Below, one piece after another: positions 6,177 through 34,642 of a stretch of 64,000 bases of DNA. How positions within the stretch are numbered: position 1 is the first letter of the stretch; each line of letters opens with the position of its first letter. The notes beneath the pieces were generated by a model. It was not told the DNA's origin. It did not search any database and saw nothing but the letters and a program-made list of their open reading frames with translations. The translations under genes were made by a program, and so were the position numbers. This stretch comes from Bilabrum cf. latius (taxonomy: Eukaryota), in assembly GCA_965178125.1 (NCBI GenBank), contig OZ237767.1, forward strand, positions 496,001 through 560,000, in the 5' to 3' direction.

Positions 6177-9100
6177 TCACTCGTCATACTCATCCCCTTC
6201 ATCCTCCTCCTCCTCCACGATCGCGTCCAGGAGGTCTTCCCCGGGAGACCCCAGCAGGTCCCGCATCGACCCCGAAGGCTCTAAGGGTGCAGGGGCAGGA
6301 GGGGCCTATGCCCCTCCGGAGCCCTGGCCCTGGCCCAAGGAGCCTTGCTGGTGGCCGCCGCTGCCGCTGCCGTTGCTGCTCGGTGGTGGTGCAGTTGGGG
6401 TCACGGGTTGGATATAAGGCTCCGGGTCATTTGGAGGCGGGCTCCCGAATCCGCTTTGCTCAGCCTGTCCCTGTCTCGCCCCGGCCTAGAGGCTGGCGCC
6501 TGAACCACCATGCGATGCGCCTGCACCTGCACTACTGGCGGCAGCTGCTGGTTGTTTCGGCGGCCCCGGCGGCTCAGCAGACAGCGATCCGATCTTTGGT
6601 CCGGCGCCTGTGCCTCGTTCTGCAACAGCGGTGGGCGGCCTGGGCGGCTGTCTGGCCGGTGGAGATGCGGGTGGAGGGGGCTGCAGTGCAGCTTGAGCAG
6701 CCCTGCTGGCAGCTGCTGCACCCGCTGCCTCCATCGCCCCCGGGCTGCCGGAGCCCTTGGGTCCGGAGCCGAAAAGGTCCGTCCACATGCCCGTTGGCCT
6801 CCTCTGTGTTGCCTTGGTGCCCCTGCCCGAAGGAGTCCTCTTGAGCACACCTGGGGGGCTGGGCCCAGGGGGGCTGTTCCCTGGTGTGCCAGGAGCCGCC
6901 CCCATGGTGGGGTCCAAGCCCTGTGGACTACCCCTGCTGGCCCCCGGGGTTAGGTGGGGAGACCCCGCGCGACCCCCGGGCGGGGCCAGGTCCAGCTGGA
7001 TGTGCGACCGGCTGTTGCTGCGGCGGATTACGCGCATGGCCGACATCCCCGAGAGGCCATCGCTCGCCATGGCAGGCACGGGGGGCTGGGACGAGGGCGA
7101 TGGAGCGGGGGCAGGGGCAGGGGCATTGGTGGGTGCGACGGGTTTGGCTGGCAGCTCCGAGTTGCCGGTGCCTGTGCCGCCCCCGCCCTCGCCCGCGCTA
7201 CGAGCCGCTTTCGCAGCAGCTGGCTGACCCGCGGAGGCAGACTGGTCCTTGAAGATCTCTCTGGCGGCAGGGGGCCTGGGAACTGGCCGCTGCGGCTCAC
7301 TATCGGTCTGTTCCTTCGAATGCTCCATGGGTTGTGGGTCCATGTGCGCTGGGGCTGGCACATGGGGAGGTTCACGAGGTTCCTGCGGCCTGGCTTGGGC
7401 CTGGGTCTGGGTCTCCGTCGGCGGGGCGTTGCCCTGCAGCGGTGACTCCTCCTCTTGCTTCTCCTTCTCTTGCACGGGAAAAGGCCTGGAGACGCCTTCT
7501 CCCATCGACCTGAACTCGTCTGCCGATGTACCCACGTTGCTTGCCCCGCCGAACAGCCGCCCGTCGTTCATTGCCACCATGGAATATCTGCTCTGCTTTT
7601 TACGCAGCGGAGGGCTGCCAGAGGCGACCGGGCTGCTGCTGCTGCCCGCATCGCTGCCTGCCCCTTGCCCTTGCCCTTGCTCCGGCTGCAGCACCTGCAG
7701 CGACTGCGGCCTTCTAGGGGACGGAGCGCCCCCCACGGCTGAGTCAGACCCGGTGACGGGAGGCAGCACAACGAAGGACGGCTGCCTGGTCTTGCGGAAT
7801 CCCTTGCTCCCCCCACTTCGCGCGGCCGCCGCCAGCTCCTCCAGCGAGGCGGAGGGCGTGCCGGGGGGAGATGGGGCCCGCCGAGCATCATCATTCAGCA
7901 TCGTAGGACCGGCGCTGGCCCGCCGTGGGGCAGCCGGTCGCATTGTTCTCCGCGGTGGGGGTGGGGGAGGGCCCCCCGACCTGGGCTTGCGTCCGCCCAG
8001 CTGGCCCCTCTTCTCGTACCTGAACTTGGAGACCGCCATGCTGGCCCTGCGCTGCTGCCGCTGTTCCCTGATGGCCTGCTCCTGTCTGAGCCTCACCAGC
8101 CTCTGCCTCGACTCGGGGTCCTCGGGGTTCTGCTGCTGCTTCCGGTGGAGTGCGTACTCCTCTGCGATGTAGCTCTGCTGGTCCTCCAGCTCTGCGACGG
8201 TGACCCGCCGCTTGCGGGGGATCTTATCGCCGCCGAAGGTTCGCTGGGGCTCGCTCTCGGAGGAGGCACCTGTCCCGCTGCTGTCTCCATGCGCCACCGG
8301 CATGGGCCTCTGCCTCACTTGTTCCCTGATCCTGCTGAGGGCGACCACGCTCCTGCGGCGGGCGCGCTCCTCGACCTCTTTCTGACCTGAGCCGTCCGAC
8401 TAGCGGTAGTGCGGGGTCATTCCGGTGAGGCTTGCCGCGGGCGGGGATGGGGCGGCGGGGCGGGCGCTGGGGATGGCAGTCGATGAGGTGGCCGCGAGAG
8501 GGGCGGGTGCAGGGGCCTAGGACTGGGCTTCGATGGCCCGGCTCGCGGCTTGGAAGGCTCCTGCAGGAGGAGGGGTCCCTGGCTTTCTAATGGAAGCGAC
8601 AGACTCAGACGCGGCCCGATCATCTGCAGCCCCCGCGGGAGGTGGGGTGCCTGGCTTGCCCTCCCCCACTGTTGTCCCGATACTCTGGCCACCCTGTGAT
8701 ACCTGCTTCGCTTGTTCCCTGGGCTGTTCCTCGGGAAAATCCCCCAGATCTCTTCTCCTCCTCTCGATCTCGGCTCTTAGTGCAGGTGGCAGTTCCTCGT
8801 CGTCCTCCACACCACCCGCCCCCTTGCCCATCGATACCCCGGCCGCAGCAGCAGCACCCAGCGCCTACCCGCCCGACCCGCCCCCGTTCTCCCCGGGAGG
8901 GGCACCCCTTCCATCGTACGACTTGAACCGCATGCCGGGCACCGCAGTCAGCCCGGCAGCGTGCGACCCATCCCCCTGCTTGGCGATGCCGTCCCTGGCA
9001 GGCGGTTCCCTGCCCCCGTGCGGCAGCTGTTCCCCGGCAATGACCTGCTTGGAGGTGTCTGCGGCCTTGCTGTCGCCCATCCACTCCCAGTCGACTACGG

Positions 9101-11900
9101 GGCTGAACACGAACCCGGATGGATCCACGATCGCGGCGCGAGCCAGCTGCTGCAGCCTGTATGCGTCGCGCCGGCGCCTCGTCTCGGGGTCCAAATCGGT
9201 GGACACGGCGGGGCCCAACCCACGGCGGGTTCCTTCCGCGGACGACGATGATTGGGGCGACCTCTGACCCAGTCCGGCGGGCCTGTCCAGCGGCGACATG
9301 GGTGTCGGTGAGGAAGAGGAAGAGGAATACAAGGTGTCCCCCGCACCTGTTCGCTTCTGGCTGTGCGCGGCTGCATCCATCCCTGCCCTCAGGCTGAATT
9401 GGGCCGAATCCGCGCCCCCCGCTCTGCCATCTCCCTCTCCCTCACCTTGTTCCCTGGCGTCATCCATCTCGCTCTGGTGCGCGATCACTGCCTGCTCCTG
9501 CGCGATCAGCGTGCGCTCCACCACGGACTACTCCGAGGGCTGCGGGGCCCGCGCTGCACCTACTGCTGCCCCCGCACCTTCCGTCAGCCCGGCAGCGCGA
9601 CCTGGTGCCATTCCGCCCCGTTCGATCATGGCGGGATCTTGCGGCACGGGCTGCAGCAGCTGCGCAAGCTTTCGTCGGATCCCATCCATGCTCACGCCAG
9701 ATCGCGTCCCCCTCCGCCGGTACTTTAGGAGATCCTGAATGATACCCTGCAGCTGCACAAGCCGCTTGGCGAGGAGAGCGTTCCGGCTCCTCGTGGCCTC
9801 CAGCTGGCGCACCTTCTCAGCCGCCTGCTGCCGCTGGTGCTCCGCCTGCTCCTGCGCCAGCCTCCTGGCCAGCTCACCTTTGGCCTCTAGCTGTGCCCTG
9901 GCGGGGGAACTGGGCGCGTTCGGCCCTGCAGATGATGCAAGCCCAGCCACGTCCCCCCCGACCCCGTCCACCCCTGCCTGCAGCTGCTCTCCCGCCACCC
10001 CGTGGGCCTTCTCCCACAGCATCGCTCGCAGCAGGGCGCGGTTGATGCGGCTGCTGGCGGGGCCCTCCGAACGCTTGAAGCGCCACACCATCGTCAAACG
10101 GAACATGGCGCCGCGCAATTTGCGCAGGCCGGAGCGAAGAACCTCCTGCCTGCGGGCAGCCAGCTCGGCTTGCTCCACGGTCGACGGGCGGGCCGGCCCC
10201 TGCCCCGGACCAGCACCAACCAGGCCATGCACATCGCTGACTCGCCGCTGCATCGCGGCGTTCCCACGCATGCGCACCCCCACCGAGTCGCTGTGTTCCA
10301 TCACGCCCGTGGCGTGCAGCATCACGCGCCCGTCTTCCACGCCCTTGACCCGAAGGATGCTCTCATCGCCCTGCCTCGGGTCCGGGCCCGCCACCATCGG
10401 AACACCCAGCTCCGCCTGACGGGCCTCCGCAGCGGCCGCCTCCTCCTCCGCCCGACGCATCGCCCTGACGGCAAGTTCCGCTTCCAGTGCGCGGCGCCTC
10501 TCCGCCTCCCCTGCGTAGTGCAGCTGCTGCCTGGTAGAGTCTAGGATCTGCTCCAGCATCGCGGCAGTTGTCTGCAGATCCGCGCTCCCTCCAGAGTCGC
10601 CGTTGGAGCCAGAAGACTACGATTCGCCACTCCCGGTGCGGTGAGCACCACCTCCCTCTGGCCCTTGCGGGGCAGATGCGCCAGACCCGTTTATCTGCTG
10701 CCCCTATCCAGCGCCAGCAGGGGACTACTCGTCAGACTGTGCACGATGTCCCCCCCTCTGCTTGCCAGCCTGCACCAGCTCCCGGAAGGTGGACGGCAGC
10801 AGCTTCTGAGGCAGGCTGTGCTTGCCACGCAGCAGCGTCATTGTCTAGCCGCGCCCCCTCATCCGGCCTTCAAGTCGCTGCGCCGCCCGCATGCCCGGGC
10901 TTGCCGGATCATCATCCGTCCCTTTCCCTTGTTTCCTAGCCTCCTCCTCTTTATTCTCGTCTGCTTTTTCTTTTGCTCTTTCTCCTTCGTCCTCGTCCTC
11001 GTCCTCGTCGCTGTCAGGGAACAGCTCCACGAAGGCTGCACGGCCGCTTTGCATCACACCGTCGGGATACCCGCCACCACCAGAGCCCACGCCGCCGCTG
11101 CTGCTGCTGCGATGCGCCCCGCCCGTCACACCAAAATCCCCGTTCGACGCTCCCAGTAGATCGCCCATGCCCCCGAAACCCCCCAGGGAAAGCCCCAGGG
11201 GCATCGTCCCCTCCGCGGGGGCGAAGGGCGAGGACAACAGCGCATCAGTAGCTGCTCTCGCATCCCTCTCTCCTGCCCCCGACAGGCTCCCGCCCAGCCC
11301 ATCATGCCCGCCCGTGCCTCCGTCTCCGCCTACACCCCAGTTCCCGCCCGGGTGAACAGTCACGCCGCGCCCGAGGTCGCCCTCCTGCAGTGCCCTGAAA
11401 AGCGGCCCTCCGATCTCCTCCTCTTCTTGGGCCCCCGCCGGGCCCCCGCCCCCGTTGTTCCCTCGATCCCCGGGAGAGGCCAGGCCCCGCGCCCTACGCC
11501 CCTCCGCCTCCAGCCGTGCCTTTGTCCCCTCATCTGCAGCCTTCAGCACGTCGTCGATCGAGGCGGTGCGCAGCGTCTGCAGCATCTGCACCAGTCGAGA
11601 GGCGTCGCCGTGCCCGCTCCGCAGCTTGGCCAGCAGCGACTCGGTCAGCTCGGCCGCCGACATGCTGGCCTGCTGCTGGACGTGCTCTGCCGCGGTTGGG
11701 GGCGGCCTGCGTCCATTCGGGCTGCTGCCAGCAGTAGGCTCGCTGACTCCATCCTTCCCCGCTCTATTCTTGCCCCGCCCTTGCTTGGAGCCTTGTTCCC
11801 CGGGGCCCCTGCCCTTGGCTCTGGGCTCTAGGCCCTGCGATGCAGCGAGAAGGACGCGCCACCCGGTGTTGGTGGAGACGGTGCTGCGGCGAGCCCTCCC

Positions 11901-11931
<31 letters not shown>

Positions 11932-14900
11932 TGCCGCTTCAGAGCCGATGTGCTCTCACCAGGCTGGGCCAGACCAAGGCCGTCCAGAATGCTCCCTGGC
12001 TTGATCGCGTTGCCCACCGATGCGCCACCTCGCCCGTGCCCCCTGCCACGAGGAGGAGGCACCCCTTCCCCTCCAACGGATCCATCCACATCCTCGCCCT
12101 CGCCCTCTACCCCACCGGACTGTGTCGCGCTGGCAGGCAGCTCACCCTCGAACGACATCCCCCGGATGCTCCGCAACAGCCCCGTGGCATCCCGAGCCTC
12201 TCCCCCGCCCACCCCTGTGCCCCCATCCCCGCCCCCGCCCTGGCTGTTCCGCTGCGCCGCCGCAGCCAGCGTGGCCAGGAGGTCCGTGGACCGGAAGGAC
12301 TTCTGCTTGGCGATGCCATTGCCTGCGTGGTGGTACTGAGGCATCTCCCCCGGGGCATCGCCCATCCCCTGCTGCCCGGGGGACGAGGGGCCTGGGCCTG
12401 TCGAGCCGCTTGTCCCGCTCTTGGTCCGGCGCAGCATGGCGGGGTGCGGTGCTCCACCGGCTCCCTCCACCTGCGGCATGGGAGGCAGGGACCCAGCCTG
12501 CTTGTTCTTCAGGTGCCAGAGAACAAAATCTCCCTCCTCCACCGAGGACGTTGTCTTGGACCGACGCACCATGCCAGGCAGGCCGCCGCCTCCCCCACCG
12601 CCACCTTCACCACCACCACCTCCGCTATCGTGGCGGTTCTCGTCGCCGCGCACGGCTCTGGTAGCTGCAGCTCCGATGGCACCGCGCCGCTCCGGCAGCT
12701 CGAACCCGTCACTCGTCATACCCGCGCTCGCCTTGGCCATAGAGAGGGCTAGCAGGGCGTCAGGGGAGGACGGCATCGAGGACCGGCGGACCCCGGGCCT
12801 GCGCGGCGAAGGGCTGCTCGGGCCATTCGATGCCGATGGGCTGGCATCGCTGCCATATCTGTGCGACATGTGCCCCTCTCTTTGGTTCTCTCGCTCGATG
12901 GCAGATCGCAGCGCGTTTGGGTCGATCTGGTCATCGGGCTGCCCAGTCGACAGGTGCCTCGCACTGGCGTACAGGGCCTGGGCAAGCCTGCGGGCATCGC
13001 TAGCCAACGCATCGGACCCTCCCTCCGTGGGCCGCATGCCCAGGGACTGCGCCCCTCTAGACAGCCCTAGACCCACGCCCCCCTCCTGGCTCGTGCCTCC
13101 GTCTTGCACAGTGGCGTGCAGAGCGTCTAGGCCCTGAAGCAGGCGGTCCGTCCCTGGATCCACCGCCCGCCCCCGCCCTTTGTGATCCTGCTCCTGCTGC
13201 CCCATCACCATCACCTGCCCGTCAGCATCCTGAGACCGTTTCTCCCGAAGGACGGCGAACAGCTGCCGCATCTCCCTCACCAGTCTGGCCTGCGAGTCCT
13301 GTTCCCTGGCGGTCGCCCCCGCGAGGGAGAGCTCCAGATCCACCCCTCGGCCGGGAGTGGACGAGGACGAGGACGGAGAGGAGAGAGGGGAGGATGATGC
13401 GGGCGTGCTGAAGCTCCCATCCGCACGCCCAGCACGGTGTTCCAAACCACCACCGCTCCCTCTTTCATCCTCTCCGCCTCTGTCACCACTGCTGCTGGAG
13501 GATGAAGAGGCCCTTGCCTGCTCCGCAGCAGCGGCGGCCTCCGGTAGCCTCGCCTGCACGACGGCGCGCGTGTGTTCGCTCGCCCTCGCCGCCCCCCTGC
13601 GGGCGTGCTAAAGGTCCATGAGCACAAGCTCGGCGGGGTGGACAGAGTCGCCAGCCATTGCAGTGGCCGTTGATCGCGAGACCCCTGGACCGGACTCCCT
13701 GGCACCGTCCATCGATTGGCTGCCTGCATCGAGCCTAGGCCCTGTTCCCTGAGAAAGGACAGACTGATAGGCCGCGTCCTTCAGGCCTCGTCTGCCTGCA
13801 TCCTGACCCTCGCCCTGCCCCTGCTCGTCCTCTTGCTCGCCGCTGCCATGCTCCTGCTCCTGCCCCGCCCCTGTGATCGCGATGCCCACCCCAGCGATGC
13901 CCAGCTCAACATGGATGCGGCGCTACAGTGACTCGAGCATGTCCCGCGCCGCACTCCTGCCGGTGGTCAGTGCCGCCTCCTGACCCTGCTCCTGCTCCTG
14001 CTCCTGCTCCTGCTGCTGCCTCTGGTCACCATCGGCCAGACGGTGCCTGGCACGGCCTGCCTCTCCATCGCCAGCGGCACTGGGTTCGTGCTCGCCCTCC
14101 TCGCCCTCCTTCCTCTCCTGCACTGCACTGCCGCTTTGGCCGTCAGTGCGCTTGTCTCCCCCCGCAGGCGCACCTCCTCCGCGCCTCCTTCCCCGTTGTT
14201 CCCCCAGCTCCACGATCCCCTTGTCCAGGTCACCCGCATCGTCCCTCCCTCCTGCAGAACCAGACTCAGGACCAGGACCAGGACTGTGCCTGCCGCCGCC
14301 TTTGCCTTCCTCCTCCTACCCCGACTTGGCCTGCCAAGCACCCCCGCCTATGGGACCTCTCAGCAGGTCAGACAGCCTGTCCAGCCGCCCTAGGACCCTC
14401 CTGTCCGAGGGATCCCACCCCTCCTCGTCCAGGTCCGCGTCATCCACCGCCACACCCCGGGTGAGAGCGGGGTCTGTCCCCAGCTCGGGGTCGAAGGGGT
14501 CACCCTTAGTTGTTCCCTCGGGCCTGCGAGGAGTGCCGGGCCCATCGGGCAATGTGTCGTTGCCTGCCTCCGCTTGCTGCAACTGCGACTGCGCCTGCGG
14601 CGGTGCCGCCAAGTCGCCCTCACCCATGGTTGCGACCGGATGGGAGGGCAGCGCTTCCGTGGCGGCGACTGGGGGCGGGCCCGTTGAGGTTACAACCGCA
14701 TCTGAGCCTCCGCTGGACGCAGGCACGACATCCCCCCAAGGAGACCCGGGCTAGTTGGACGGTGGTACGGGGAGACCATCCGTGTCCACCTTAGGCTTGG
14801 GCGGGGTCTTCTGACCCTCGCTCGGGGCCATACGGCCGCCTCCTGCCTGCTGCCGCTCGTGTTGCTGTTGCTGCTGCTGGTCTTGTTCCCTGTGCGTTCT

Positions 14901-16067
14901 GTCTTCCTCCTGGGGGTAGACTTGGCCTGCAGTGGGGGGTGATGAGGCGGGTGGGGGGGGCGGGACTGCGGTGCCCGCTGGCTGCACGGACGCTTGCCGA
15001 TCGACCGGACCGTTTGGGCTGCTAGCCGATGTGCCTTCTGCTGCAGCGCTGGCGCCCACACGGCTGTAGGTCCCGGTTGCATTGGCTGCTCGCCCATGGC
15101 TCTGCCCGGGGCCGCGGCTCGCGACCGCACGCGGCCGAGCCTGGGCACCTGCTCGCCTGGTGGATGGAGCGCCCCGCCCATGGGAAGAAGAAGCGCCCCG
15201 TCCATGGGAAGAAGGAGCGCCCCGTCCATGGGAAGAAGGAGCGCCCCGTCCATGGGAAGAAGAAGCGCCCCGTCCATGGGAAGAAGAAGCGCCCCGTCCA
15301 TGGGAGGACCTGGGCGATGGTCCCTGCTGCTCTGGCGTGCCATACGACCCGCGGATTACTCGAGGGCCGGCAGCTGGCCTGCTCCTGCTCGTGCTCATGC
15401 CCGCCGTGCCTGCGGCAGGGGCGGTGCCACGAACTTGAACGGGGGAGGAGCTGCTTGGCGACGCACGGGAGCGACTGGCTGTGGTTCGCTTCTGCCCCCG
15501 AGGCGCTGTTGAACCACTGCCGTGAGGTGTTCCGTGCACGGTCGATGGTCTTGAGCCACTGGCAGGTTGACGTGCTGTGCGCCTGGTTGCACCACTGCCA
15601 CTGGCCTGCCGACCGTCTCGATGCTGGTGTGCAGGCCCACGGCGCGGAGAACCACTTTGTCTGGCCCCGCCGACTGGGCTGTGCGTAGGTTTGTTAGTAT
15701 GTGTAGGGTTTCGAGCAGGCGTCCGCTGCCGGCGCGCGCGCTGAAGGCGCTGCGACGGCGATGCAGCGACTTCGCTTGCGGCAAATACGTCTCGCTGATC
15801 CCTGGGCGACTTTGGCGAATGGGGGGCCGCCTTTCGCGCGCTGCTTGCCTATGTAGCACTCATGAAACGACTTCGTCTCCCACCAGAACTCGCTGTCGAG
15901 TCTCTAGCCACAGAGGCTGGGCGAATTGACCCAACTCCAGGTGGTGCAGCCCCAGCCTCACGCGCATCTCCACCATCTGGCTGCACCAAATGCCCACGAC
16001 GATCAAATCGCCCTTTCAGGCTGTCTCGATAGCGCCTAGCAATCTAAGCGCTGTTCAGCGCCGCCAT
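6177..16067 (-). CDS. ~3300-aa single-exon, low-complexity (G/A/S/P/R/E-rich) protein with short coiled-coil segments; function unknown; 16 in-frame TAGs
   Basis: Nine track ORFs (ending 14751, 14316, 13923, 13608, 10845, 9528, 8865, 8517, 6486) share one frame. I read the gaps between them: the only interruptions are TAG (16044, 15849, 14751, 14316, 13923, 13608, 10845, 10725, 10704, 10617, 9528, 8865, 8517, 8400, 6486, 6306). First ATG after the upstream TGA is 16067 (MAALNSA*IARRYRD). Ends ...EGDEYDE-TGA at 6177. Confidence 0.82.
15166..15305. repeat. 24-bp coding minisatellite, ~5.8 copies, encoding (SSHGRGA[S/P])n on the minus strand
   Basis: Unit g[g/a]agcgccccgtccatgggaagaa repeats at 15166, 15190, 15214, 15238, 15262 and 15286. 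Confidence 0.95.
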
Positions 16068-16172
16068 CAATAGAGTTATGTTGGAGTGGATCCGCTATCG
16101 TCGCACCGCCTGGTCGCAAGACTCGGAGGTTGCAACCGCAAGTAGATTTCAACAGTGGATGCAGCCTGTGCG
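16068..16172. promoter_or_regulatory. Probable bidirectional promoter between the 3300-aa gene and PIG-U
   Basis: 105-bp spacer between divergent ATGs, which are apparent only once TAG is read as sense. Confidence 0.45.
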
Positions 16173-17762
16173 ATGTGGCAGGGTCCGCTTCTCGGAGCGC
16201 TATGGTTTTGCATGGTATTGCTTAGATTGTTTGCAACAGACTGGGGTTCAGCGATGCAGTCTCCGACGGCTTGGGCTGTTGAGCGAAGGCTAGCTTTTGG
16301 GACTTTGCGAGGGCATTGTGCCGAGCAAGCGACAGGCTTGGCGGTTGTAGACAGCTAGTATAGATATCCACTTAAGTTGTTGCCCAGCGTAGTTGCTTGC
16401 TCCTTGGCTAATGCCGAGATCTTGATGCTCGTGGATTCGCTCGCAGCGCTAGCTCTGGCGAGCTCACTGCTTGTATTGGCGCAGTAGTCCAGGCAAAGCT
16501 TGCTGCACAGATGGTCTAGCTTATTAAGGAAGGACAGTTCTGGGTATTCGACCGCAGCTGGTACCCCATCAGAGACGCCCGCAGGGCGTATGCAAGTGGG
16601 CGTGGCAGACGTGTGGGCTGAATACCTTGCAATCACTGCCACACAGCGGCGATACAAAGTCACCCCAGTCGAAATCGAATCTTTACTGCTCGCCGACCAT
16701 GGCATCACGGACATGCTTGCGCCCGTGCTGCTTCTGACAGCCTGGGCCGCAATGCCAGTGCTCGTGCCAAGCGGCGCCTGGCCCTCGCTAGGGATGGCTC
16801 CATGGGCCGCGCTCGCTACAGGGGCGGCATTCATGCACGCAGACCGGCTCGTGCCAGGCCTTGTGCTCGTGTGCGCCGCGTCTGTCTTGTCTAGCGGAAG
16901 GCTGGTCCCGGCTGCCGCCGCGTGCGCCCTGGGGTATGGTCAGTCGCAGGGCGGGTCGAGCTGGGGGAGGGTGGTGGGGGTGGTGGCAGCATGCCTGGCT
17001 TGTCTCGCAGTCAGCATGCATTGGGATGTGCTGATTGAGGCGGTCGGGGCTGAGAACGGTGCATTGCATGAAGGTGCATCCCCAGCAGGCGCGGGCTAGT
17101 CGGGCCTGCTCGGAGCCCTGGGCGCGCTGTGCCTCGAGGCTTTCTCGTCCGTGCTGCGACTGTTTCACAGCCCGCCAGTGGATCCGGATGCGGGCGTGCT
17201 CTGGTATGTTGCTCTGGGCGTGTTCCCCCAGTATCGAGCCTATTTCATTGCCATCGGGGTGGGCGCCGGGTGGGTGCTGGCCGTAGGGGCGGCGGCGGCG
17301 CTGCCCCTGCGGGCCTGCTGGTTGTCTGTGCTGGGTGTGACGAGTGCTGCGTGCGCGCTGCTCTGGGTGCGAGTCGGGCTGGTGGACGTGGCATGCGCGT
17401 GTGCCCTGGCTGCTGTGGACTTGGAGGCTTGGCTAGCGTGGCAGCCGAGCTGGACCGTGTTGGTGGTGGGGCTGGGGGCCTTGTGCGTCGCGCCGGGGAT
17501 GGATTCCCTGTGGCTGGGCACTATGAAAGCGAATGCGTCATACGGATGGTTTCAGTGCGTGGTGGGGGTCGGTTGCCTGGTGTGGCTGTTGGCCCGGAGG
17601 TTCGGTGCGGTGGTCAGGGCGCACTGGGCTTGGGAGGACTCGTGTAGGGTGGAGGAACACGCCAGGAGGTGGAAACAGGCAGGCGGTCTAACGGTGGATG
17701 AGGCCCTCCTGAGGCAGGGACCGGGCGAGAAGGAAACAGGCAGGCGGTCTCACGGTGGATGA
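16173..17762 (+). CDS. PIGU: GPI transamidase subunit PIG-U (CDC91/GAB1)-like, divergent; 3 in-frame TAGs
   Basis: ORFs 16155-16358, 16500-17099 and 17151-17762 are one frame split by TAG at 16356, 16485 and 17097. PIG-U-like motifs occur on both sides of the TAGs: AEILMLVDSLAALAL, PDAGVLWYVALGVFPQYRAYF (cf. PNIGLFWYFFAEMFEHF) and LWLGTMKANASY (cf. LWIYAGSANANF). Multiple hydrophobic segments. Ends TGA. Confidence 0.75.
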
Positions 17763-17926: not shown

Positions 17927-19501
17927 TCACACCTGTTGCTGCGCCACGTACCTCCTGCTCGCACCTGACGCCACTGACGACACTCCGCCATCCACCCGCA
18001 GCAGCACGCCGTGGCCTCCCAGCGCCCCATGGTCCAGCAGCCCCGCCTGCTCCATCTCTCCTGGCTCTGCCGCCACTGCATCCCCTGGCATGGCCCCTCC
18101 CATTCTAGTTCCCACCAGCCCCATGCCCCCTTCCTCCTCCTCCACAAGCTGCGGCTGCTGCTGCTGCTGTGCCCCGCAACACCTGCCCCCCGCCACTGTC
18201 CCCGGACCCAGCCCCAGATGCAGGGCGGGCATCGAGTGCGGGTACGCCCTGACAGGGACGACCCACACAGCCACTGCCACCGCCACCACGCCACCGAGCC
18301 CCGCCCCGCTCCCTACGTCCGACAGCCTGTGCTTGTTGTCTAGCACCCGCGAGGCAGACACGTACAGAGCCAGGCACAGGCACAGGACCTGCCCTGCCCT
18401 CGCTAGCCCCGCGGCGCTGCACAGCCTCAGCGCTGGCATCGTTCCCACTGCGTCCCACCACAGCAACACCTCCCCTGCCGAACCACTCGTCACACCAGGA
18501 GCGCGGATCAGTCTCTGTCCCGCGCCCGCGCCGACGCCCAAACCAGCACCAGTATCCTGATCGCTGGCGGTGCCTTGTACCCCGCTGGGCCCCTCCCCTG
18601 CGGTGCCGGCCCCGGTGCTGCCGCTGTCCCCAGCACCGCTTGCACGTATCCTTCTGTCCCGACCTTCGTGCCCTGTCCCTGCGCCTGACCCTGCATGCAA
18701 TGCGCCTGACCCTGCGATCGTGTCCTGCCGCAGAGCCCTGTCCCCGCCAAAGGCGTCCCCGCACCCATCCCCGGCTCCACCCCCGCCGGTACTACCGTTC
18801 CTACTGCTCCCATGCGTACTGCTGCGTGTCCCTCCAAGCTCCCCGCCGAACAGAGCCCTCCATATCCACGGCTGGCACACGGTGCCTCCATAGGGCCAAG
18901 GCAGGGAGGCTCTGCGCAGAGCCGAACCAAATGCGGGCTGGGACAGCTCCCAGGCCAGCTGGCCCAAGAGGACCGCGAGCCAAGTCATGCCCGCGGTAGA
19001 AATACTGGCGTGCCCGCTCGGCCAGCTCTTCAGGCCTTCCGTGACCACAGCCTTGTCGCCGGCGCAGTCGCTCGGGACAAAACTTAGAGGCCGCCCATGC
19101 TCGTCCACAGGCGGATGCGGGAGCGAATCAAGCCCGGCACCATCTGGAAAACATCTAGACAGAAAGTCTGGCCTCGGCCTGGACGCAGTTCCCTTGCCGA
19201 TTGACGTCAGAGTTTCAGTTATTACGATCGTTGTTGCGAGCGAGAGCGATCTCTGGATAGCAAGCTCTACTCCACCAAACACAAGAGCTCCGAGCCAGAG
19301 GATCCCAAAAGGTCCAATAAACCCTACAACCATTAGCATCGTATTGCTCACTGTGCTAGTTCGCCGCGGATACGCAATATCATTGTCGAAGAAAAAATCG
19401 CGATTTCCAGGGTGGAACAGAACTTGATTGCAAGCTAGAACGGCCAAATATACTGCAATTACAACAATAGCATGCAAACTGTACTGCAGCATGCTGACCA
19501 T
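17927..19501 (-). CDS. PAP2-family lipid phosphate phosphatase (DPP1/LPP-like)
   Basis: All three catalytic motifs are present: KGTASRPRPDFLSRC, SWPSGHAS and SRVLDNKHRLSDVGSG. Has TM helices and a Gly-rich insert between motifs 2 and 3. Ends TGA. Confidence 0.92.
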   Translation of the reverse strand: MVSMLQYSLHAIVVIAVYLAVLACNQVLFHPGNRDFFFDNDIAYPRRTSTVSNTMLMVVGFIGPFGILWLGALVFGGVELAIQRSLSLATTIVITETLTSIGKGTASRPRPDFLSRCFPDGAGLDSLPHPPVDEHGRPLSFVPSDCAGDKAVVTEGLKSWPSGHASISTAGMTWLAVLLGQLAWELSQPAFGSALRRASLPWPYGGTVCQPWIWRALFGGELGGTRSSTHGSSRNGSTGGGGAGDGCGDAFGGDRALRQDTIAGSGALHAGSGAGTGHEGRDRRIRASGAGDSGSTGAGTAGEGPSGVQGTASDQDTGAGLGVGAGAGQRLIRAPGVTSGSAGEVLLWWDAVGTMPALRLCSAAGLARAGQVLCLCLALYVSASRVLDNKHRLSDVGSGAGLGGVVAVAVAVWVVPVRAYPHSMPALHLGLGPGTVAGGRCCGAQQQQQPQLVEEEEGGMGLVGTRMGGAMPGDAVAAEPGEMEQAGLLDHGALGGHGVLLRVDGGVSSVASGASRRYVAQQQV

Positions 19502-24744: not shown

Positions 24745-26334
24745 TCACTTCCTTTTAATGCATTCAGCAAATGCAATCCAGGCGCACACGGCCCTCACTT
24801 GCCTCTCATCGAGGAGCGCTGGGACGTGACCCGCGCCCTCCTCCACGAACAGCCCCCTCGGCCCACGGATCCCATCCGCGACGGAGGACTGGCCGCCAAT
24901 CACCTCGATCCCAGCATCCGTTGCTTCCTTTTTGGCCCCTGCTAGCCTGGGATCGCCCGCTGCCTCGGCCTCCGCGCCTGCCTCACCTCCTGCCTCCGCA
25001 CCGGCCACCATCCGAGCCGCGCACTCTGCCGAAAGGATATCAGACTTAGCTCCGTGCAGGACCAGCAAGGGCCCGCACCTCGCCCTCTCCATCAGTGGCC
25101 AGAGATCGGCGTCCTTTGTGATCGAGGCGGGGTCACCGAACCCAGCCGCGATCCGAGGGTCGTACGCCAGCTCCACCTGCACCTCGCGCCCTTGTTCCCT
25201 GGCAGTCTCTCGGGCCGCCTCGATGGCAGCCTATGCCCTTGCCATGGCACACTCCCCGTCTCCATCGCTCCAGGGTGATAGGCCAGGGAACCGAGTCGGT
25301 GCTGCAGCTTCACTCGACTGTGGTATCCCGTCGCTCGGGATCGGGGCCTGCACCGCCGCACCGACTGGTGACCCAGCCCCACCAGTTGCGGCACCTGATC
25401 TTGAGCCCTTTGATCCACTGCCACTGCCACTGCCACTGCCACTGCCACTGCCACTGCCACTGCCACTGCCACCGTCCTCCAGCACGGCCCTCGCCGCCGC
25501 CTCAGCTGTGCCCCTGATGGCACCTCCACTTGCATCCCCGCTAGCACCCTTCTTCTCGCTATCCTCCGTACCGTCCTCGCCCTTGGCCCGCACGAGCAGC
25601 CTTGCGACCTTGAGCGCCATGCGATCCCGCAGCGAGGGAGGGCAGGGGCCGAACCCAGAGTAGATCCCAGCCACGTACTCCGCTGCCTCCTTGATACCAG
25701 GGAACAGTGGAGGCTTCCCGACGTAGCCCGCAATTCGCTGCAATGCAGTGCACCTGATGTGGGCCCCAATGTCGTTGAGCACCAGGGAGGCGAGCTGAGG
25801 TCGGGGGGAGGCTGGACTGGCAGTGCCACTGCCAGTGGGTGCGGCGGGCGCATCGGGCGAACTGTCGGCCTCTGTCATACCAGAGTTGAGAAGGTCAGTG
25901 TCTTTGGTCTCTCCGTCGGCTGCCCAAGGTCGGGGCTCCGCCATCCAGTGCATCGCGATCAGTCCACCCATCGATGTGCCTACCCAATGGAATTTCTTCC
26001 ACTTCAGATGAGACACGAGAGCATCCATATCGGAAACGTACTGCCTATAATTGTACCCGGTAGGGTCTGCAAGCTTGTCTGACCATCTCCTGCCGGCAAT
26101 GTCAACAGCGACTACCTCGTGTCCACGGACAGCAAGTGCGCGAGCAAGCACATCAAAGTCGGAGCCGTTTCGGGTCAAACCATGCACACAAAGAACGGGC
26201 AGTGCATCCATATCGTGCGTTGAAACATACTTTACGTAAGATATTGTGTGGTGAGATCCGTCCTGCAAAGTAATGCAGTCACATTGCCGTCGATCAATGT
26301 CCACGCCAAGTAAACACTATTTTGTTGCATTCAT
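24745..26334 (-). CDS. Alpha/beta-fold hydrolase with long Gly/Ser/Ala insertions; 2 in-frame TAGs
   Basis: CVHGLTRNGSDFDVLARAL, WVGTSMGGLI (nucleophile) and LVLNDIG lie before TAG 25231. YDPRIA, LHGAKSDIL (acid) and GAGHVPAL (His) lie after it in the same frame. ATG 26334 is reached through TAG 26317. Ends TGA 24745. Confidence 0.88.
25415..25471. repeat. (CCACTG)n hexamer microsatellite, ~9 copies, encoding a (GS)n linker
   Basis: Directly visible perfect repeat inside the hydrolase insert. Confidence 0.95.
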
Positions 26335-26526
26335 GCACAAGTCTCCGAAACTACTCGGCCCGTAGCATGGAATACCACCCAATGAATCCATAATACTTGA
26401 TATTAGCGTACCGCAGTCTTGCAAGGGGCACATTTGATCGGTGGTTTGTATCTGTATTCGGAGCCGTGGCTCGCTCGCTCTCTAGTCTAGGGCATTTGTA
26501 CCAACGACGATGGCCTCTTGAACACC

Positions 26527-28185
26527 ATGAGATTAGTTTTACCGTCTACTTTCATCAGGTATCCTGCAGCCCGTAGGGCGGCAATCGCACTGATACTGCG
26601 ACCATCCCTCCGAGGCCCAACTTGGGATCTAAGCTCGTACGAGACGTTGCTGATCAAAAGACGAGAAGCCCGCGGTGACCCATGGAGTGGTAATCTTGCC
26701 TGCCCCGGTGGTAAGCTAGAGCCAGGCGAAGACATTGTCGATGCGGCTGTTCGAGAAACGTATGAGGAGGTTGGCCTGAATCTGAAATGGCCCGGACCAC
26801 CCCCAACGCTCTAGCACCCCAGCCAAGAGCCTCACATCGGCTCTCGGGAGGCAGATGATACAATGGCATCCGCGAAAGCTCGCCGGGTCTCGCCTTGGGC
26901 AGGGGGGGTGCAACAGAAGACGCACTGGGATGCAGTGGCATCCGAGGCTGCCTCTGGCGGTGCCTCTGACACCTAGTAGCTGCCACCTGGACGCCTTTTT
27001 CAGTTTGCAGGCAGACTTGATGACAGGTATATATACGCTAGAGGGAGGAAAGTCGGATCTTACGTTCTCAGCACGGCTGTGTTTCTGAGCAAGAGGGCTG
27101 AGACCTCTGAGCTGACGCTGAGCGAGCGGGAAATCGACGGCGCGTTTTGGTGTCCTCTGTCCTGGCTCTCTGGCCTGCCCCTGGACAAATAGGGCGTACT
27201 GATCTAGAACAGCATGCTGCCGCCCGCTGTCAGGGCCGTGGACCGCTTCCTGGGTTCTGGTGCTGGTTCTAGTTCTGGTTCTGGCTCTGTGGAAAGCACG
27301 GCTCGCAGCGGTGCTTAGCTGTGCTGCCCGTCGATCGATTTTCCTGTTTGGAAACTGTCAGGGGCAACCAAATCTGTGAGAACAGACCTAGACCCGTCCC
27401 GTGGAGAGGATGGGGTCGCGCAGGCGGGCCTATCCGACAGGCAGGCGTTCCTGCACGAGCGGCTGCGGTCCCGGTTGCATCCAAGCGGGCGCGAGGGGGA
27501 AGCAGACAGGCCGAGGGAATTCAAGGGTCCCCTGTAGGTGCGAGGCTTTGCTTCCCCGAAGCAAACTCAAGGGACTGGGCAGTTGGGAGCGAAAGACAGG
27601 CCCAGGACGGCCCTTCGCGATACCGAGGCAGCGCCTGGGATTGGAAATGCAGCTGACGCGCCTGCTCTGTCTGGAAGCGGTGCGGCCGCACAGTCAAAGT
27701 AGGTAGCAGCTGTCGAGGCGCCGCACAGCTCGGGATTGGAGCCGCCCCACTTTCGCTTTTGGGGCCTGACTCTTGGAGTAATGTCAGACTTCGCCTTCGC
27801 TGCGCGGTTATCTGCTACGCGGGCAGACAGCTCCTCAACTCGCCTGCAGGCCAAGGAACACCCGACCAAGTTGAAGCTACCCGATGAGTGCTCGCAGCTT
27901 GCGTGGCCATCTGCAACGGCTGACTTTCGCACGCAGCCACTCGGCTGGGTTGCGCTGTCTCTTCGGTTTGGCGTGATGGAGATCGAGAGCTACTTGAGCG
28001 GCTAGGGGCGACGCGCACTTTCTGCCAAAAGAGCAGGAGTTGTAGCTGCGGTACTGTTGACTGCATGTGCCTCGCTGTCTGCTGTTGCCATGGCTATGCT
28101 GAGGCAGGTGCAGGGTCAGCACAGAGGTGGTCCCTCCGGACAACTACCAGTCCAGCCGATGCCTCGCCCAGATGCGCGGCTATGA
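26527..28185 (+). CDS. Nudix hydrolase, CoA-diphosphatase-like (NUDT7/PCD1 group), with a C-terminal hydrophobic segment and -ARL terminus; 9 in-frame TAGs
   Basis: LLIKR...[13 protein letters not shown]...[12 protein letters not shown] (Nudix box). Beyond TAGs at 26812, 26974, 26977, 27190, 27205, 27316, 27535, 27700 and 28003 the frame gives [23 protein letters not shown] and [12 protein letters not shown], ending PDARL-TGA. Confidence 0.88.
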
Positions 28186-28435: not shown

Positions 28436-31400
28436 TCATTCTAGGGGTTTCGCAACGATCTTCTGGCTCTGTGATGCGGCCAACTGCGTTACTTCCGCAT
28501 CTCCCGCGCTTGGCATCTCCAGCTTCCACGCCTGGCACAGCTACATATAAGCCTGTAGAGTGGCCAGCTCTTCATCGTTCGGGGGGGCATTGAGCGTGCG
28601 TGTCTCCCGGTCAAGCCGCTCGCTGCGCACCCCAGCTCTGTGACCCGGTCCCAGCTTTGGCCTCCCACCAGACCGTCCGCTGGCAGCCAAGACATCCAGA
28701 TCGAGGACAGCCCTGTCTTCATTTCGCTTGCTCGGCCCCATGGCAAACACCGAGGGGCTTTCTGAAACTGTCTCCCGCGCCCCGATCATTGCACTTGCAA
28801 ACGGCCCAACGCCATGCCTTGCCGGCCTTGCTGTCGTTGTGTTTGGACCCTCACCGCTGCTAGTGGGTCTGGCACCCCCAACATCGCGACACGCAAGGTG
28901 TACTAGCACTGCAAGTGGCCTGGCTAGCACAGAAGGCCACATGTGATGCAGACCCTCTCGTTTGCACTCCCGATCGCGCATTACGTCGGCATGCAGCTAC
29001 CGCAAGAACGGCAGCACCGCCCGACGCCCTCTCCCGGCAAACACAGCACGCTTGGCCAGGCAGCGCCTAAGCAGCCTGACAAGAGCCCTGTCCACCGAGG
29101 TAAGTTCGCTGCGGCCAGCAATGAGTGCCCGCAAGACCTGCTGGAACGCTGCATGGGACTGCAGCTGCTACACGAGCAATCCACGGTCCGCTTCCAGCCG
29201 CATCAGTTTGCTTTGAAGCTGCAGGCTTTGCGATACATCGCCGTCTAATGCAAGAGCCTTGGCGGCTTCAATCTATGGCTTGCCGTGCTGCGACCGCTCC
29301 AGATAGCGGGCCATCTGCAGCGTGAGGCGGTCCTTGGTCGCATCGAAGGCCTCCCTCGCCGCGGCGATCTGCGCCTTCCGCGCCTCGATGTGGGCGTCAC
29401 ACTGAGCGGATACCTGCGCCTGAGACAGAGGGACGGGCTGCCCCCGGTGGTCTCGCCTGGCCTTGCCCACTTCACCAGACAGGAGACGGCGCTGCCCCTG
29501 CGAAAGCTGCCTCGGTCGCCTTACTCGACCAGTTGACGAAGACGAGTGCGCATGTCGTTGTTCTGCCGTTGTCGTGGTCGTGGCTGTGTGTGGGCGTCGT
29601 CGCAATGGCATGGCTTGGGCGCCCTGCCTGGCCTATGGTGGGTGCGCTCGGGCAGCGGCAGTGACAGTCCTGCCACCGTGCATGTAGCCAGACCTGCCTC
29701 TACCACCGCTGGTTCGTGTCGCCAGCGGGCTCAGCATGATGCTCGCGGCTGCCGATCGCGGCCTGGCAGGCGGCTTGGGAGAAACGCCTCCCTTCGGACT
29801 TGATGTAGGCAAGTGCACCCGGGCGATAGCCCACGCTCCAGCTCTACGGCCGGCATTGTCAGAGTGCTCGCTTGGCTGCTGCTGCTGTGGTGGCGGTGGT
29901 GTCGCAATTGCAAATCCAGGCGATTGCGGGGACTCTACGCGGCCGCTTCTCTGCTGCTGCCGTATTCCGCTGTCACTGATGGGGGTCGATCGGGGGGAAT
30001 TAGCCGGCTGCTGGCACCCGCTCGTCTGGTAGGCTGCAGACAGGACTCTGCTCGCTGTGCGAGGGCGAGCAAGACTAGCGCTAGCCTGCTTCACAGACAA
30101 AGTGCTGGACTCTGGCCCGGGGACACCGGCTGCACCTGGTCTCGGGGACCTGTGCACAATCATGGTGGGGTCTCCCGACTACCTAAAGCCTTGCGCCCGG
30201 AGCGAGCGCCTCAGCATGGCGGTAGTCCCGGATGCGGCCGACTGTTGGCGCCCCGAGTTCCGAACCCTCGGACTCTAGTTCCCGCCCGGGTTGGAGAGGA
30301 CCCCATCCAGCGCATCGGCGGCGTCGCCCTCGTCGCTATGGTCCGACTCGGTACCGGTGCTGCTGCCGCTGTTAGTGCTTCTGGCATCGTTGTCGTCCAG
30401 CTCTTGGTCATCTGCCTCGGTCTCGCCGCGGGCGTCCTTCCGCTCGCCGTACTACGACTGTGAACCCTCCTTACGTCTCGCAGTGCTGGCTTTGGATCCC
30501 TTGTTTTTGTCCTTACCCTTACCCTTACCCTTGTTCTTGACCTGTCCGGTCGGCAGGCCGGTCCCATTTCCACCTACCTTGCCCGCAAGCGCTTCAACCA
30601 CAAGCAAACTCGCAGCCGCCATCCCGCCTCCAAGCCGAATTCCAACATCAGCATCCACCACGCCATCGCCGTCCTCGTCCTCCTCTCCTATGGCATCGGT
30701 AGGGTCCCGGAGCCGGCCCCCGACGCGCAACCTCACCCCTCGGGTGTCAGCCGCCTCAGCATCAGCGCCCGATCGCAGCACGCCATCGAACCCTGGCTCC
30801 CGAGGATACACACTCTGCTTTCCACCGCCATGCGACTCTAACAATCCATCCATGGCCTCCGTGGAAGACAGGACCAGGTTGCGGCGCACCCGCCGTCGCC
30901 ACTACCCGGCCGCCGCCTATGATCCGTTCCTGTGCCGCCCTGCCGCAGCCCCGCCCGCCCCACCTCTTTTCTGCTCCGCCAGCGCCCTGGCTTCCTCCCT
31001 CTCCGCCGCAGCGCGGGCCTCTGCCTCTGCTCTCAGCCTCTGCAGGTCCTCCTCCAGGGCCTCCTTGGACCGACCCACCAGCACACCCCTGGGCCGCTGC
31101 CCCCCTCGGATCAGGGACATGAGCACCTCGGCGCGGCGGGAGGAGCGCGCGGCGTACTCTGCTCTCAGCCGCGCTGCCTGTCGCCTGGCCTGCCGCCGGG
31201 CCCTGCGCCTGGACCGCCTCGCCTCCCGTCTGTCCTCCTCGTGGCCGTCCTTAAGGTGGGCAAAGGTGTCCCCGTATTGCCTCGACCGCCTGCTGCCCCC
31301 ACTCGCCCCCGAAACCCGCCCACCTTCACGACCAGCGTCTCCGCGTTCCCCCGCGGCATCCTCATCGATGCCCACGGCGCTGTGGGCCGAATCCATGCGC

Positions 31401-34400
31401 TGCAAGGGGGGACCTTTGAAGCGTCCAAGCGCCCCACCTGCCTTGCCTTCTGACCCTGCCCCAGCAGAGGACTAGCCTTCCACAGTAGATGACTACCTGC
31501 CACTGCTGCTGCTGCTGCGACCTCCACTTCTCTCCTGCCGCCCCGCCTCGCTATCGGAGGAGGAACCCTTCGAGTTGACGCTGCTAGAGGCAGTGCTGTA
31601 CCCACGGGGCCTGCCACTGCCACCTCCCCGGCGGCTGCCATGCGACCCCGCACCCTCACTCGAGCTCGAGTCGCCGTCGCTGTACCCGCTGCTCTCGCTC
31701 TCCACGCTCTGCGCGCTGCCCAGGCTGAGCCCCGTCACCATCATCACACCGCGCTCGTCCACGGGCGCGACCCCCCCTCGTCCCGAAGCCAGCCTTGCCA
31801 TGTTATGCACGCTGCCGAAACCAGACCCGCCGCGGCTCGGCCACATCTCTTCGTCGCTGGACTCGCCGCCGTCTCCCAACCCAGACCCTCCGGATTCTGA
31901 CCCCAGTGCAAGCGCCAGCTGCTCGCGCGGCACACCAAAGAAGCTGTCCATGCCTCCCTCGGGCTCAGGCTCGCGCTTGCCGTCTCCAGATCGACCACCC
32001 CCGGCGCGGCGCCGCGAGCCTCTGCTCTTGCCGTGCACTCCCGATTTGCTCTGCCTCCTCGAGTGCTTGCGATCGCCGCCCGAGCCGTCGTCTCCGCTGC
32101 CAGTCTCCGGATCGCCATGCTATTTGCGCTCCCTCTTCCCCGCGTCCACCCACATGCTGCCGTGCTTGCCGTGCACGCTCCGCAGCTGCCGCATGGTGGC
32201 CCTTCGAAACATGCGGCGCTGCTTCTCCACCAGCTCCCTCTGCCTTGGGTCCTCTTCGTCCCCGTGCGCGCTCCCGTGTGCCACCAGGTGCGAGCCCTGG
32301 CCCCTCGCAGTGGCTGCTAGCATGGCCTCCACCACTGCGTCCCTGCCGCCGCCCAGGGCACTCCCAGGAACCAGCACGAACGATGAATGCCGGCTAGACG
32401 AGGCTGTGCTCGGGCGGCCACCACGGCCCGGAGGCCGACTGGTTGATTGCCAGTGGCTGGACGCAGCAGCCAGGCCCGCTCCCGCTCCCGCTCCCGCTCC
32501 CCGCTGCATCCTGATGGTCATCTTGCGGTGGCGCATGGCCTCCTCCTGCTGCCGCCGGAAGGCCTGATTGGCCTGCCGAATGCTCCGCTTGCGGTGCAGC
32601 GCACTGTTGCGCTGCTGTCCGTAGTCTCTGGCGCCCCCTTCCCCCCCCTCCTCCTTCACGTTTCCCTAAGATGAGAGACCGAGCCATGCGGCTAGGTCTC
32701 GAGCAGCGCCATCGTCGCCGCCCTCGTCCTGATCTGACCCAGCGGAGCGAATCCGATGCAGCCCTGAAGTGCCCCCTAGTCCCCCCTCCCCCTCCCCTTC
32801 TTCGTCTTCTTCCTGTGATCCCATGGTTCCCTGCAGCTGCAGATCCTCTTCTCTATCTCGCCTCTCCCTTTCCTGCCGGGCAGCCACCACTGCGTCCATG
32901 GCCCCGATGGGCAGGCTCGCATCAACCGGTCGCATCCACTCTTCAAGCACAAGGAGCGGGTCCGCTGCGATTGCAAAGGCCTCATCAGCCTCGTCCTGGC
33001 CCTGGCCCCCACCCGCGCCTAGACCAGCAGCCTGCCCATGGCCAGAGGGCCCAGCGTCAGCCTCGTCCGCCCGACGGCTCATGCCGTCCCAGCCTGCATC
33101 CCCTCCCGCTGGCACCACGGCCGCTCCGATGACCAGAGGCACCTCACGAAAGGCAGCATACTTCCGGGCCAGCGCTGAGGCCTGCTTGCCCACCTCGGAT
33201 CGGGTGGCGGAAGCGGTTCCTGCTGCGCTGAGCATGCGCTTGGTGGCCTGCCGCGCCTCCTCGGCTGCTCTGCGACCCACCATCTCCTGCTCCTGTGCCG
33301 ATAAAACAACGTGCCTCTCAATGGCATCATGCCCCTGCTCCAGATCAGCTCTGGGCGCCCCTGCCCGTGCGACTGACAGCACGTGCGCCTGCCTCGCCAG
33401 CTCTCTGGCCTCCCTCATCAAGATTGCCTCCTCCGATGCATCCTCGTCCTGCCGGTGCTCCTGCCTCTGTTCTCCCGACTCGGTACTGCGGCCTCCAGGA
33501 CGGGGCTGGGTGTGGATCTGGCGCGCTGCAGTCGAGGTGAGGGAGCGGGAGCGGGAGCGGGGAGGAGAGGGTGAAGGTGAGGGTGAGGGTGGGGGTTTCC
33601 CGTGGCGGCGGGAAGCACGGGTGGTTGCGGACCCCTGGCCCCTCCCCGCCGAAGGCTCATTCCCGGCGGCGCTCGACTCGGACACATAAGTCGAACCACC
33701 ACCACCACCACCACCAGGCCTAGGCCCAGTCGGTTGGGACTCGGTTGGGCATGGCGAGACTCCGTCACTAAGAGTGGCTCGTTTGCTGCTCATCTTTTCT
33801 GCCTCCTCACGTCCTACCCGCACCGCCATGCGATGCAGCTGCTCGGTGGGTCCAGCCAAGGGCGCAGTGAGGCCTTTGGACTCCATCCACGCCCGCACCC
33901 ACTCGGCGTCTCCCGAGAAACCAACCCGAGTGATAGAGCGCCGTGAGGACATCCGTCGAGACAAGGGGCGAGAAGATAGACCCGGCGACCTTGTAGGCCT
34001 GCCAACAGCTGCAGCTGCAGCCTGTCGGTGGGGCGAGCTCGCGCCTCGCCGGTGTTGCGCGTCGTCTTCACCAGGCCGCATGCTCATCCGCTTGCCTGCC
34101 AGGCGACGTTTGGAGCTCTTGTACCGGAAAGCAAATTGCATGCCTGAAATGGCACCGGATTTGGTCATGACTCGTAGCATATTCCATCGACGCTGGGAGG
34201 CGGTCTTGGATTTGGATTGTCGCTGCAGGCGACGGCTGGCGGCTTTGATTTTGCTCCTGGCCTCTGTCGCACCACCACCGGCCCTGCGACCTGATTCAAG
34301 TGGCATATCCAATAGGCTTCTGAGCTGAATTTGGGAGGCTCTCCGCTTTGTCACCGCCAAATCTTTCGCGCGTCGAGCCCGAATCCGTTGGGAAGCAACG

Positions 34401-34642
34401 CGTCCAGACTTCCCTGCATGATAGTCCCAGGAGTCATTGACCTCCATTTTGGCTGGCACACAGTCAAAATACGAGTCTGGAAGCTCTCCTACATCATGCT
34501 ACCCAGAATGGACCGTGTCAGGTCGGTTCTACTCGAACGTGAGCTGGGATGGCGGTCTTCTGCTAGCCACTGTCTAAGACCGGCACCGCACTCTGACTTT
34601 CCTCCTCTCGGTTTCAGCAACAAGATGACTTACATGAGACAT
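28436..34642 (-). CDS. ~2070-aa single-exon low-complexity, R/S/G/A-rich protein of unknown function; 17 in-frame TAGs; start uncertain (alternative ATG near 34750)
   Basis: Track ORFs ending 34574, 32666, 32120, 31493, 30917, 30452, 29633, 29273 and 28541 share one frame. The gaps contain only TAG (also 34529, 34499, 31472, 30902, 30275, 30179, 29168, 28997). Ends ...KIVAKPLE-TGA at 28436. Confidence 0.8.

Follow-up and report, generated by a model that had tools for sequence, protein, structure and literature searches.

A predicted nuclear code with UAG as glutamine and UAA and UGA as stops in a likely bicosoecid stramenopile

The window, the whole stretch of 64,000 nucleotides analysed here, corresponds to positions 496001-560000 of contig C33 in a eukaryotic assembly (G000) of 48.6 Mb and 111 contigs. 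It has a GC content of 63% and carries long genes with few introns, which are open only when TAG is read through. The following features, in window coordinates, were identified:

6177..16067, minus strand: low-complexity ORF of 3296 aa; 16 TAG, 0 TAA, 41 CAA, ends in TGA
15990..17762, plus strand: PIG-U-like ORF; 5 TAG, ends in TGA
17927..19501, minus strand: PAP2 phosphatase ORF; 0 TAG, ends in TGA
20114..21196, plus strand: short-chain dehydrogenase; 0 TAG, ends in TGA
21579..23933, minus strand: AMP-binding (acyl-CoA synthetase-like) gene; GC3 0.86, 0 TAG, ends in TGA
24745..26433, minus strand: alpha/beta hydrolase; 2 TAG, ends in TGA
26527..28185, plus strand: Nudix hydrolase; 9 TAG, 5 CAA, 13 CAG, 0 TAA, ends in TGA
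28436..34978, minus strand: low-complexity ORF of 2180 aa; 17 TAG, 0 TAA, ends in TGA
39624..50108, plus strand: TIG/cadherin protein of 3494 aa; 7 TAG
50857..61341, minus strand: inverted TIG/cadherin paralogue; 6 TAG, ends in TGA
63075..63998, minus strand: 3' part of a glutaminyl-tRNA synthetase (GlnRS) gene

No Pfam family was matched by the 3296-aa ORF. In the segment 39624-61341 a gene for a TIG/cadherin-repeat membrane protein is duplicated tail to tail in inverted orientation, the copies being 98.8% identical; one TAG faces CAG between the two paralogues, and upstream of each 3494-aa ORF there seem to be further exons split by introns (38324-39600 and 61400-62634). Two acyl-CoA synthetase-like genes on opposite strands (21579-23933 and 35543-37873) are also close paralogues; their GC3 is 0.86-0.89 and they contain no TAG, a codon that becomes rarer with rising GC3.

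The 15 ORFs of the window (18,127 codons) contain 70 in-frame TAG codons, 49 of them within 6177-34978, together with 104 CAA, 707 CAG and no TAA. The initial annotation had proposed that UAG and UAA are uncoupled, listing 74 TAGs without an in-frame TAA and 15 genes that all end in TGA. The absence of TAA stands with a TAG count of 70, and all ends are indeed TGA, in 14 complete ORFs rather than 15; most of these are ORF ends without a homology anchor. If UAA and UAG both encoded glutamine (Gln), as in NCBI table 6, the window would be expected to hold 16-20 TAA, obtained by scaling TAG per gene by CAA/CAG or NAA/NAG, and their absence is therefore not due to chance (P ~2e-9).

The meaning of TAG was read from dynein heavy chains. 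A search of the genome for the dynein AAA1 domain gave 28 matches with 20 TAG and neither TAA nor TGA. From 10 kb fetched for each of 19 dynein heavy chain genes, 59,104 codons were obtained, among which there are 265 TAG, 370 CAA and 2121 CAG, with no TAA and no TGA, and the proposed uncoupling thus holds outside the window. Compared with 120 homologues, columns conserved at 90% or more have Gln at 21 of 37 TAG sites, 299 of 472 CAG sites and 32 of 49 CAA sites; at 70% conservation the corresponding fractions are 28/62, 360/757 and 41/91. A likelihood calculated over 152 TAG sites places Gln first, 165 log units above the next residue, Glu. The mean frequencies of Gln (0.22) and Glu (0.11) at TAG columns lie within the gene-matched ranges for CAR codons (0.19-0.30 and 0.08-0.14, respectively) and outside the range for GAR codons. 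Before gene matching, Glu is found somewhat more often where the codon is TAG (6/37) than where it is CAG (28/472), which counts against Gln. Tyr is the consensus at one of 84 TAG columns at 50% conservation and at none above that level. In Ras proteins, the switch-II Gln of the DTAGQ motif is encoded by TAG at 7 of 30 loci, these being the matches read out of 65; two TGA codons occur inside Ras matches, and the one examined stands right at the start of its match. An ab initio analysis of 188 loci (590 kb in all, some of it shared with the other sets), in which the signal was judged after 100 coding codons, found that the coding signal continues after TAG in 46% of cases (n=46) and after CAA in 43% (n=79; P=0.79). 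Judged from these alignments, TAG is a third Gln codon, placed at Gln columns as CAA and CAG are.

The ends of genes tell TAA apart from TAG. Outside the window, 43 gene ends could be anchored by homology or by a motif, and of these 34 are TGA, nine are TAA and none is TAG. The 13 complete dynein genes contribute ten TGA and three TAA, while six of the 19 extended beyond the fetched stretch and had no end scored; one dynein on the window's own contig ends in TAA exactly at the commonest C-terminal hexapeptide of its homologues. Ras genes with a prenylation motif (n=20, after ten matches lacking the terminal Cys motif had been dropped) end in TGA 16 times and in TAA four times, alpha- and beta-tubulins end in TGA four times and once, in an alpha-tubulin, in TAA, and the eRF1 gene ends in TAA. 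An xDEL pattern for ER proteins gave 45 matches, of which 30 were read and four were credible ER-protein ends, all TGA; eight xDEL matches with TAG were considered as candidate TAG ends and rejected, since they read as internal, antisense or non-coding. Excluded from the 43 were a gamma-tubulin-like gene (L350, on contig C2) and a fragment (L351), both with TGA; the former has a long low-complexity tail and the latter is an inverted partial copy nearby. The claim that TAA is missing from gene ends therefore fails for the genome at large, and of the two readings offered for it, a rare stop or a nearly unused codon, only the former, at about one fifth of ends, survives. The 3' flanking sequences of the first 38 anchored ends contain TAA and TGA in a ratio of 37:108, and the share of TAA among ends matches this composition; the all-TGA window is thus a small-sample effect, and the minority share of TAA among stops reflects the high GC content of the genome rather than a codon being given up. 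Fourteen TGA in a row have a probability of 0.037 at the measured TAA rate of 8/38, and Fisher's test of the window against the rest gives P=0.09, so the window is only mildly unusual. An enrichment of tandem stops 3' of genes, which had been suggested as a check, was not seen in this small sample: the six codons past 38 ends hold one TAA, four TAG and seven TGA against 1.5, 2.5 and 4.4 expected, a comparison with little power. The eRF1 gene of a relative that is 92% identical (L233) ends in TGA where the one here ends in TAA, and it has an in-frame TAG where this genome has CAG; the code thus reaches at least this lineage. In a metagenome scan, one of 80 loci belonged to a near relative, its eRF1 lacking the N-domain.

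The initial annotation required a tRNA with anticodon CUA, and one was found. In a partial survey, 63 of 780 tRNA candidates were scored and all 48 Rfam matches were read; one of these carries CUA (C23:907607-907679, minus strand, 69.8 bits), was found as a single copy and is followed by a T run. No tRNA(UUA), the tRNA that table 6 would call for, was present among the 48 Rfam matches or among 50 of 74 matches read for an intronless-gene pattern, the remaining 24 being two Lys genes and otherwise duplicates or variants of sequences read before. A UUA pattern specific to tRNAs with a long variable arm gave 90 matches, of which 30 were read and none was a tRNA. No second tRNA(CUA) gene was seen in 30 of 31 intronless-gene pattern matches read, and the tRNAs among 16 matches to a D-arm pattern were three Glu(CUC) genes and the CUA gene. 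As the survey is partial, and turned up no nuclear tRNA gene for Leu, Asp, His or Trp, a tRNA(UUA) or a further tRNA(CUA) could have escaped it if the gene has an intron or an odd T-loop. A 22-base part of the tRNA(CUA) plus a short motif had no exact counterpart in viral contigs, and there is no sign of a viral origin at that strictness. According to the available text of PMC5304391, C34 is unable to wobble to UAA, which explains the uncoupling of UAG from UAA on the tRNA side.

One eRF1 gene was found (contig C35, L004 2551-4424, plus strand); two other search matches were assigned, by reading of their sequence, to a pelota-like gene. The gene has two in-frame TAG codons (L004 2901-2903 and 3068-3070), and the stop-recognition domain itself therefore needs UAG read-through twice, once at position 69. 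Compared with up to 95 homologues, and in human numbering, the protein retains GTS (Thr32), E55, NIKS, S70 and YxCxxxF (Y125/C127/F131), residues that would serve recognition of UAA and UGA, and differs by G29A, N30D, S60V, L69Q, F117P, N129S and K130H. A T32G change in the GTS loop is absent; the motif is intact, and contigs show the splice joint that runs through it. The available parts of PMC4381064 report that L69A raises read-through most at UAG, that N129 is tied to the third-position G and that N30A is without effect in yeast, and those of PMC12440015 that a screen for amber read-through enriched yeast N126S, the counterpart of N129S. We hypothesize that eRF1 has lost its grip on the third-position G through changes in the N-domain, for which N129S/K130H, L69Q, S60V and F117P would be the best candidates. 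Among the 95 homologues, Q69 occurs in six and S129 in four that are not known to use a variant code; these residues are therefore candidates only and none is diagnostic. A sister environmental eRF1 clade (P0007, P0009, P0010) shares Q69 and S129, and in another environmental eRF1 (L275/P0022) the NIKS region is strongly altered. GlnRS, compared with 119 homologues, has eight changes at columns conserved at 90% or more after residue 260, none of which is readable as an altered anticodon specificity.

Taken from sequence, the nuclear code is almost certainly one in which UAG encodes Gln while UAA and UGA are stops (NCBI table 15): the tRNA(CUA) would be charged by GlnRS, the enzyme expected to charge it, C34 would restrict pairing to UAG, and eRF1 would continue to terminate at the other two codons. 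That table 6 applies and TAA is merely rare from GC bias deserves next to no credence, even though table 6 is the commonest eukaryotic variant in the accessible sections of PMC11687900 and no trinucleotide is rarer in the window than TAA (128 copies in 64 kb). Under table 6 the dyneins would contain from 46 TAA by a pooled estimate to 92 by a per-gene one, or 85 by NAA/NAG, against none observed, which refutes it; the AT-richest dynein alone, with 43 TAG, 51 CAA and 72 CAG, predicts 30. The sole TAA inside the 65 Ras matches lies in an intron. Of the two signs by which table 6 might have been recognized, neither an in-frame TAA in the dyneins nor a tRNA(UUA) among the matches read was found, and TAA sits after exact homologous C-termini and prenylation motifs. 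It is very improbable that TAA is close to disuse or on its way out, leaving UGA as the only real stop. The 14 TGA ends of the window, the absence of TAA from all 45 matches to an xDEL pattern followed by TRR and the ab initio ends (6 TAA against 60 TGA, or 6/66) speak for it; the nine anchored TAA ends, which include eRF1, alpha-tubulin and the dynein on C33, and the 37:108 background of the 3' flanks speak against it. In the ab initio set the coding signal continues past none of six TAA and none of 60 TGA, in agreement with both being stops. The coding score downstream of TAA is slightly above that of TGA (P=0.039, n=6), which goes against reading TAA as a stop.

A slim chance is given to an ambiguous UAG, decoded as Gln inside genes and used as a stop at some ends while eRF1 still competes. 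T32, E55 and Y125, which are tied to the third-position G, are all kept, just one tRNA(CUA) gene was found, and TAG is rare in high-GC3 genes, with none in either acyl-CoA synthetase. Set against this, no anchored end is TAG (95% upper bound 7.6%, from the first 38), TAG is not depleted within 200 codons of stops (7/131, compared with 11/188 for CAA), and it behaves like CAA in the ab initio analysis. Editing of TAG to CAG in the mRNA under the standard code found no support and is vanishingly improbable, given the tRNA(CUA) gene and spliced contigs that show no other letters across the eRF1 TAG sites. These contigs come from three runs of two studies, guessed to be RNA with no run on record as such, and join the predicted eRF1 introns at GT..AG, all three introns in X2 and X3 and two in X1, while X18 is unspliced throughout; the comparison spans the two eRF1 TAGs and part of a neighbour. 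The X2 and X3 contigs also cover the eRF1 TAA and end ~45-55 bases past it.

The origin of the tRNA(CUA) is more evenly contested. Its identity is 50/75 to Tyr(GUA), 49/75 to Gln(UUG) and 44/75 to Gln(CUG), the last of which rules out a duplicate of Gln(CUG). Six of seven acceptor-stem pairs, including C1-G72, and four of five anticodon-stem pairs are as in Tyr(GUA), and those that differ do so by compensatory changes; 10 of 12 3'-strand positions match Tyr, against 7 of 12 for the next among 33 distinct genes, and the variable loop has five bases as in Tyr, compared with four in both nuclear Gln tRNAs. The D stem is identical to that of tRNA-Gln(UUG), and both have G73. With Tyr-like stems and a Gln-like D arm, descent from tRNA-Tyr(GUA) has about an even chance. 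The available text of PMC9976931 lists A73, C1-G72, G34 and U35 as eukaryal Tyr determinants and G73, G2-C71, G10, U35 and A37 among the bacterial Gln determinants; no eukaryotic Gln set is tabulated there. The tRNA(CUA) carries U35, G73, G2-C71, G10 and A37 and lacks G34 and A73, and this loss of Tyr determinants alongside five Gln determinants of bacterial type suggests a switch of identity from Tyr to Gln. The C2-G71 pair of the genome's own Gln tRNAs counts against such a switch. An old, diverged tRNA-Gln that resembles Tyr by chance or convergence has not quite an even prospect; the shared D stem and G73, the near-equal overall identities and the several tRNA families of this genome that were not seen favour it, and the matching acceptor and anticodon stems, 3' strand and variable loop oppose it. 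We tentatively propose, as an attractive scenario that may well prove wrong, the first nuclear code change of a stramenopile by a new route in which a duplicate of tRNA-Tyr(GUA) would have become an amber suppressor (G34C), shed G34 and A73, gained G73, G2-C71 and a Gln-type D stem and been captured by GlnRS, with eRF1 separating UAG from UAA while Thr32 is untouched. If true, this would be a natural identity switch that mirrors the genetics of E. coli suppressors. The E. coli Tyr suppressor is similarly mischarged with Gln. Other laboratory mutants of E. coli, amber suppressors derived from tRNA-fMet, -Trp, -Ser, -Asn and -Lys with G73, are mischarged with Gln as well, GlnRS being drawn by the CUA anticodon (U35) and G73, both of which the tRNA here has (PMC9976931, available text). 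The mechanism is directly testable, since the code, tRNA, eRF1 and GlnRS lie in one 48.6-Mb assembly and an eRF1 with standard motifs is at hand from Cafeteria; eRF1 discrimination of UAG from UAA and the origin of a Gln amber tRNA are thus both within reach.

To our knowledge, UAA and UAG are nearly always reassigned together. The table-15 code itself is already known. In the fornicate Iotanema spirale UAG encodes Gln and UAA is a stop (PMC5304391; PMC9161772), the same codon table as here; as far as the accessible portions of these papers go, UAA is its dominant stop, whereas UGA is the main stop here, its eRF1 has T32G, whereas T32 is intact here, and its tRNA was predicted to be a mutated copy of Gln(CUG) (PMC5304391), in contrast to the tRNA described here. 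The phyllopharyngean ciliates Hartmannula sinica and Trochilia petrani also use table 15 (PMC11687900), and resemble this genome in that UAG encodes Gln, has no dual meaning and is not depleted near stops. In the excerpts of that paper, the stop is UAA in 91.9% of H. sinica genes, and UGA accounts for 8-13% in these two ciliates, compared with UGA at 34 of 43 ends here, and the suppressor tRNA was detected in neither, in contrast to the gene identified here. UAG is also sense, with UAA as a stop, in the rhizarian exLh and TARA phyllopharyngean MAGs (UAG=Leu, table 16) and in Scotinosphaera (UAG=Ser, as cited in PMC11687900), which differ in the amino acid; the available descriptions give a change at eRF1 position 69 (L69A) for exLh as well and derive the UAG tRNA of the TARA MAGs from tRNA-Leu. 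Table 6 (UAR=Gln; Tetrahymena and others) shares UAG=Gln and a tRNA(CUA) with this genome, and differs from it by a sense UAA and a tRNA(UUA). A literature search, with most subscription journals outside its coverage, returned no nuclear reassignment in a stramenopile and no table-15 case there. Earlier UAG-only nuclear codes are few and come from transcriptomes or partial assemblies, and the available parts of the sources report no decoding tRNA for the three earlier UAG=Gln cases. Because the present genome is GC-rich and UGA-dominant, the change needs no AT-rich, UAA-dominated background. Amber-suppression engineering seeks an eRF1 that ignores only UAG, for which N129S, the yeast N126S, is of interest, and annotation of this lineage under table 1 truncates its proteins.

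The host is apparently a single-celled flagellate related to Cafeteria. Cafeteria roenbergensis is the best named match of eRF1 (69%) and Cantina marsupialis that of dynein (62%), and in an eRF1 tree of 30 rows, comprising named rows and those top environmental ones that reach 395 aa, with the remainder of 120 matches left out, this genome groups on a long branch with C. roenbergensis (98/94), while Bicosoecida sp. CB-2014 is placed elsewhere. On this one-gene tree, the host is likely a bicosoecid stramenopile. A second 18S rRNA gene (L313, C95:6099-7900) shares only 77-83% identity with the tandem array of C12 and may mark a second eukaryote among the small contigs. The mitochondrial genome is contig C111 (38,401 bases; L052-L055), with a tRNA(UCA) and in-frame TGA in a table-4-like code and an ORF of 1063 aa whose start resembles ribosomal protein S4 when read by eye. 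An AT-rich repeat that is not a tRNA is dispersed over most large contigs (L112, L113, L116 and ~25 further places). The usual anticodon of eukaryotic tRNA-Ile is AAU; both nuclear tRNA-Ile genes found here (L013, C32:91173, and L046, C4:952092) have GAU. Six similar tRNA-Met(CAU)-like genes lie on several contigs (L027, L037, L041 and L049-L051), three with an altered anticodon loop, and one gene of that family adjoins a similar tRNA-Pro(UGG) gene.
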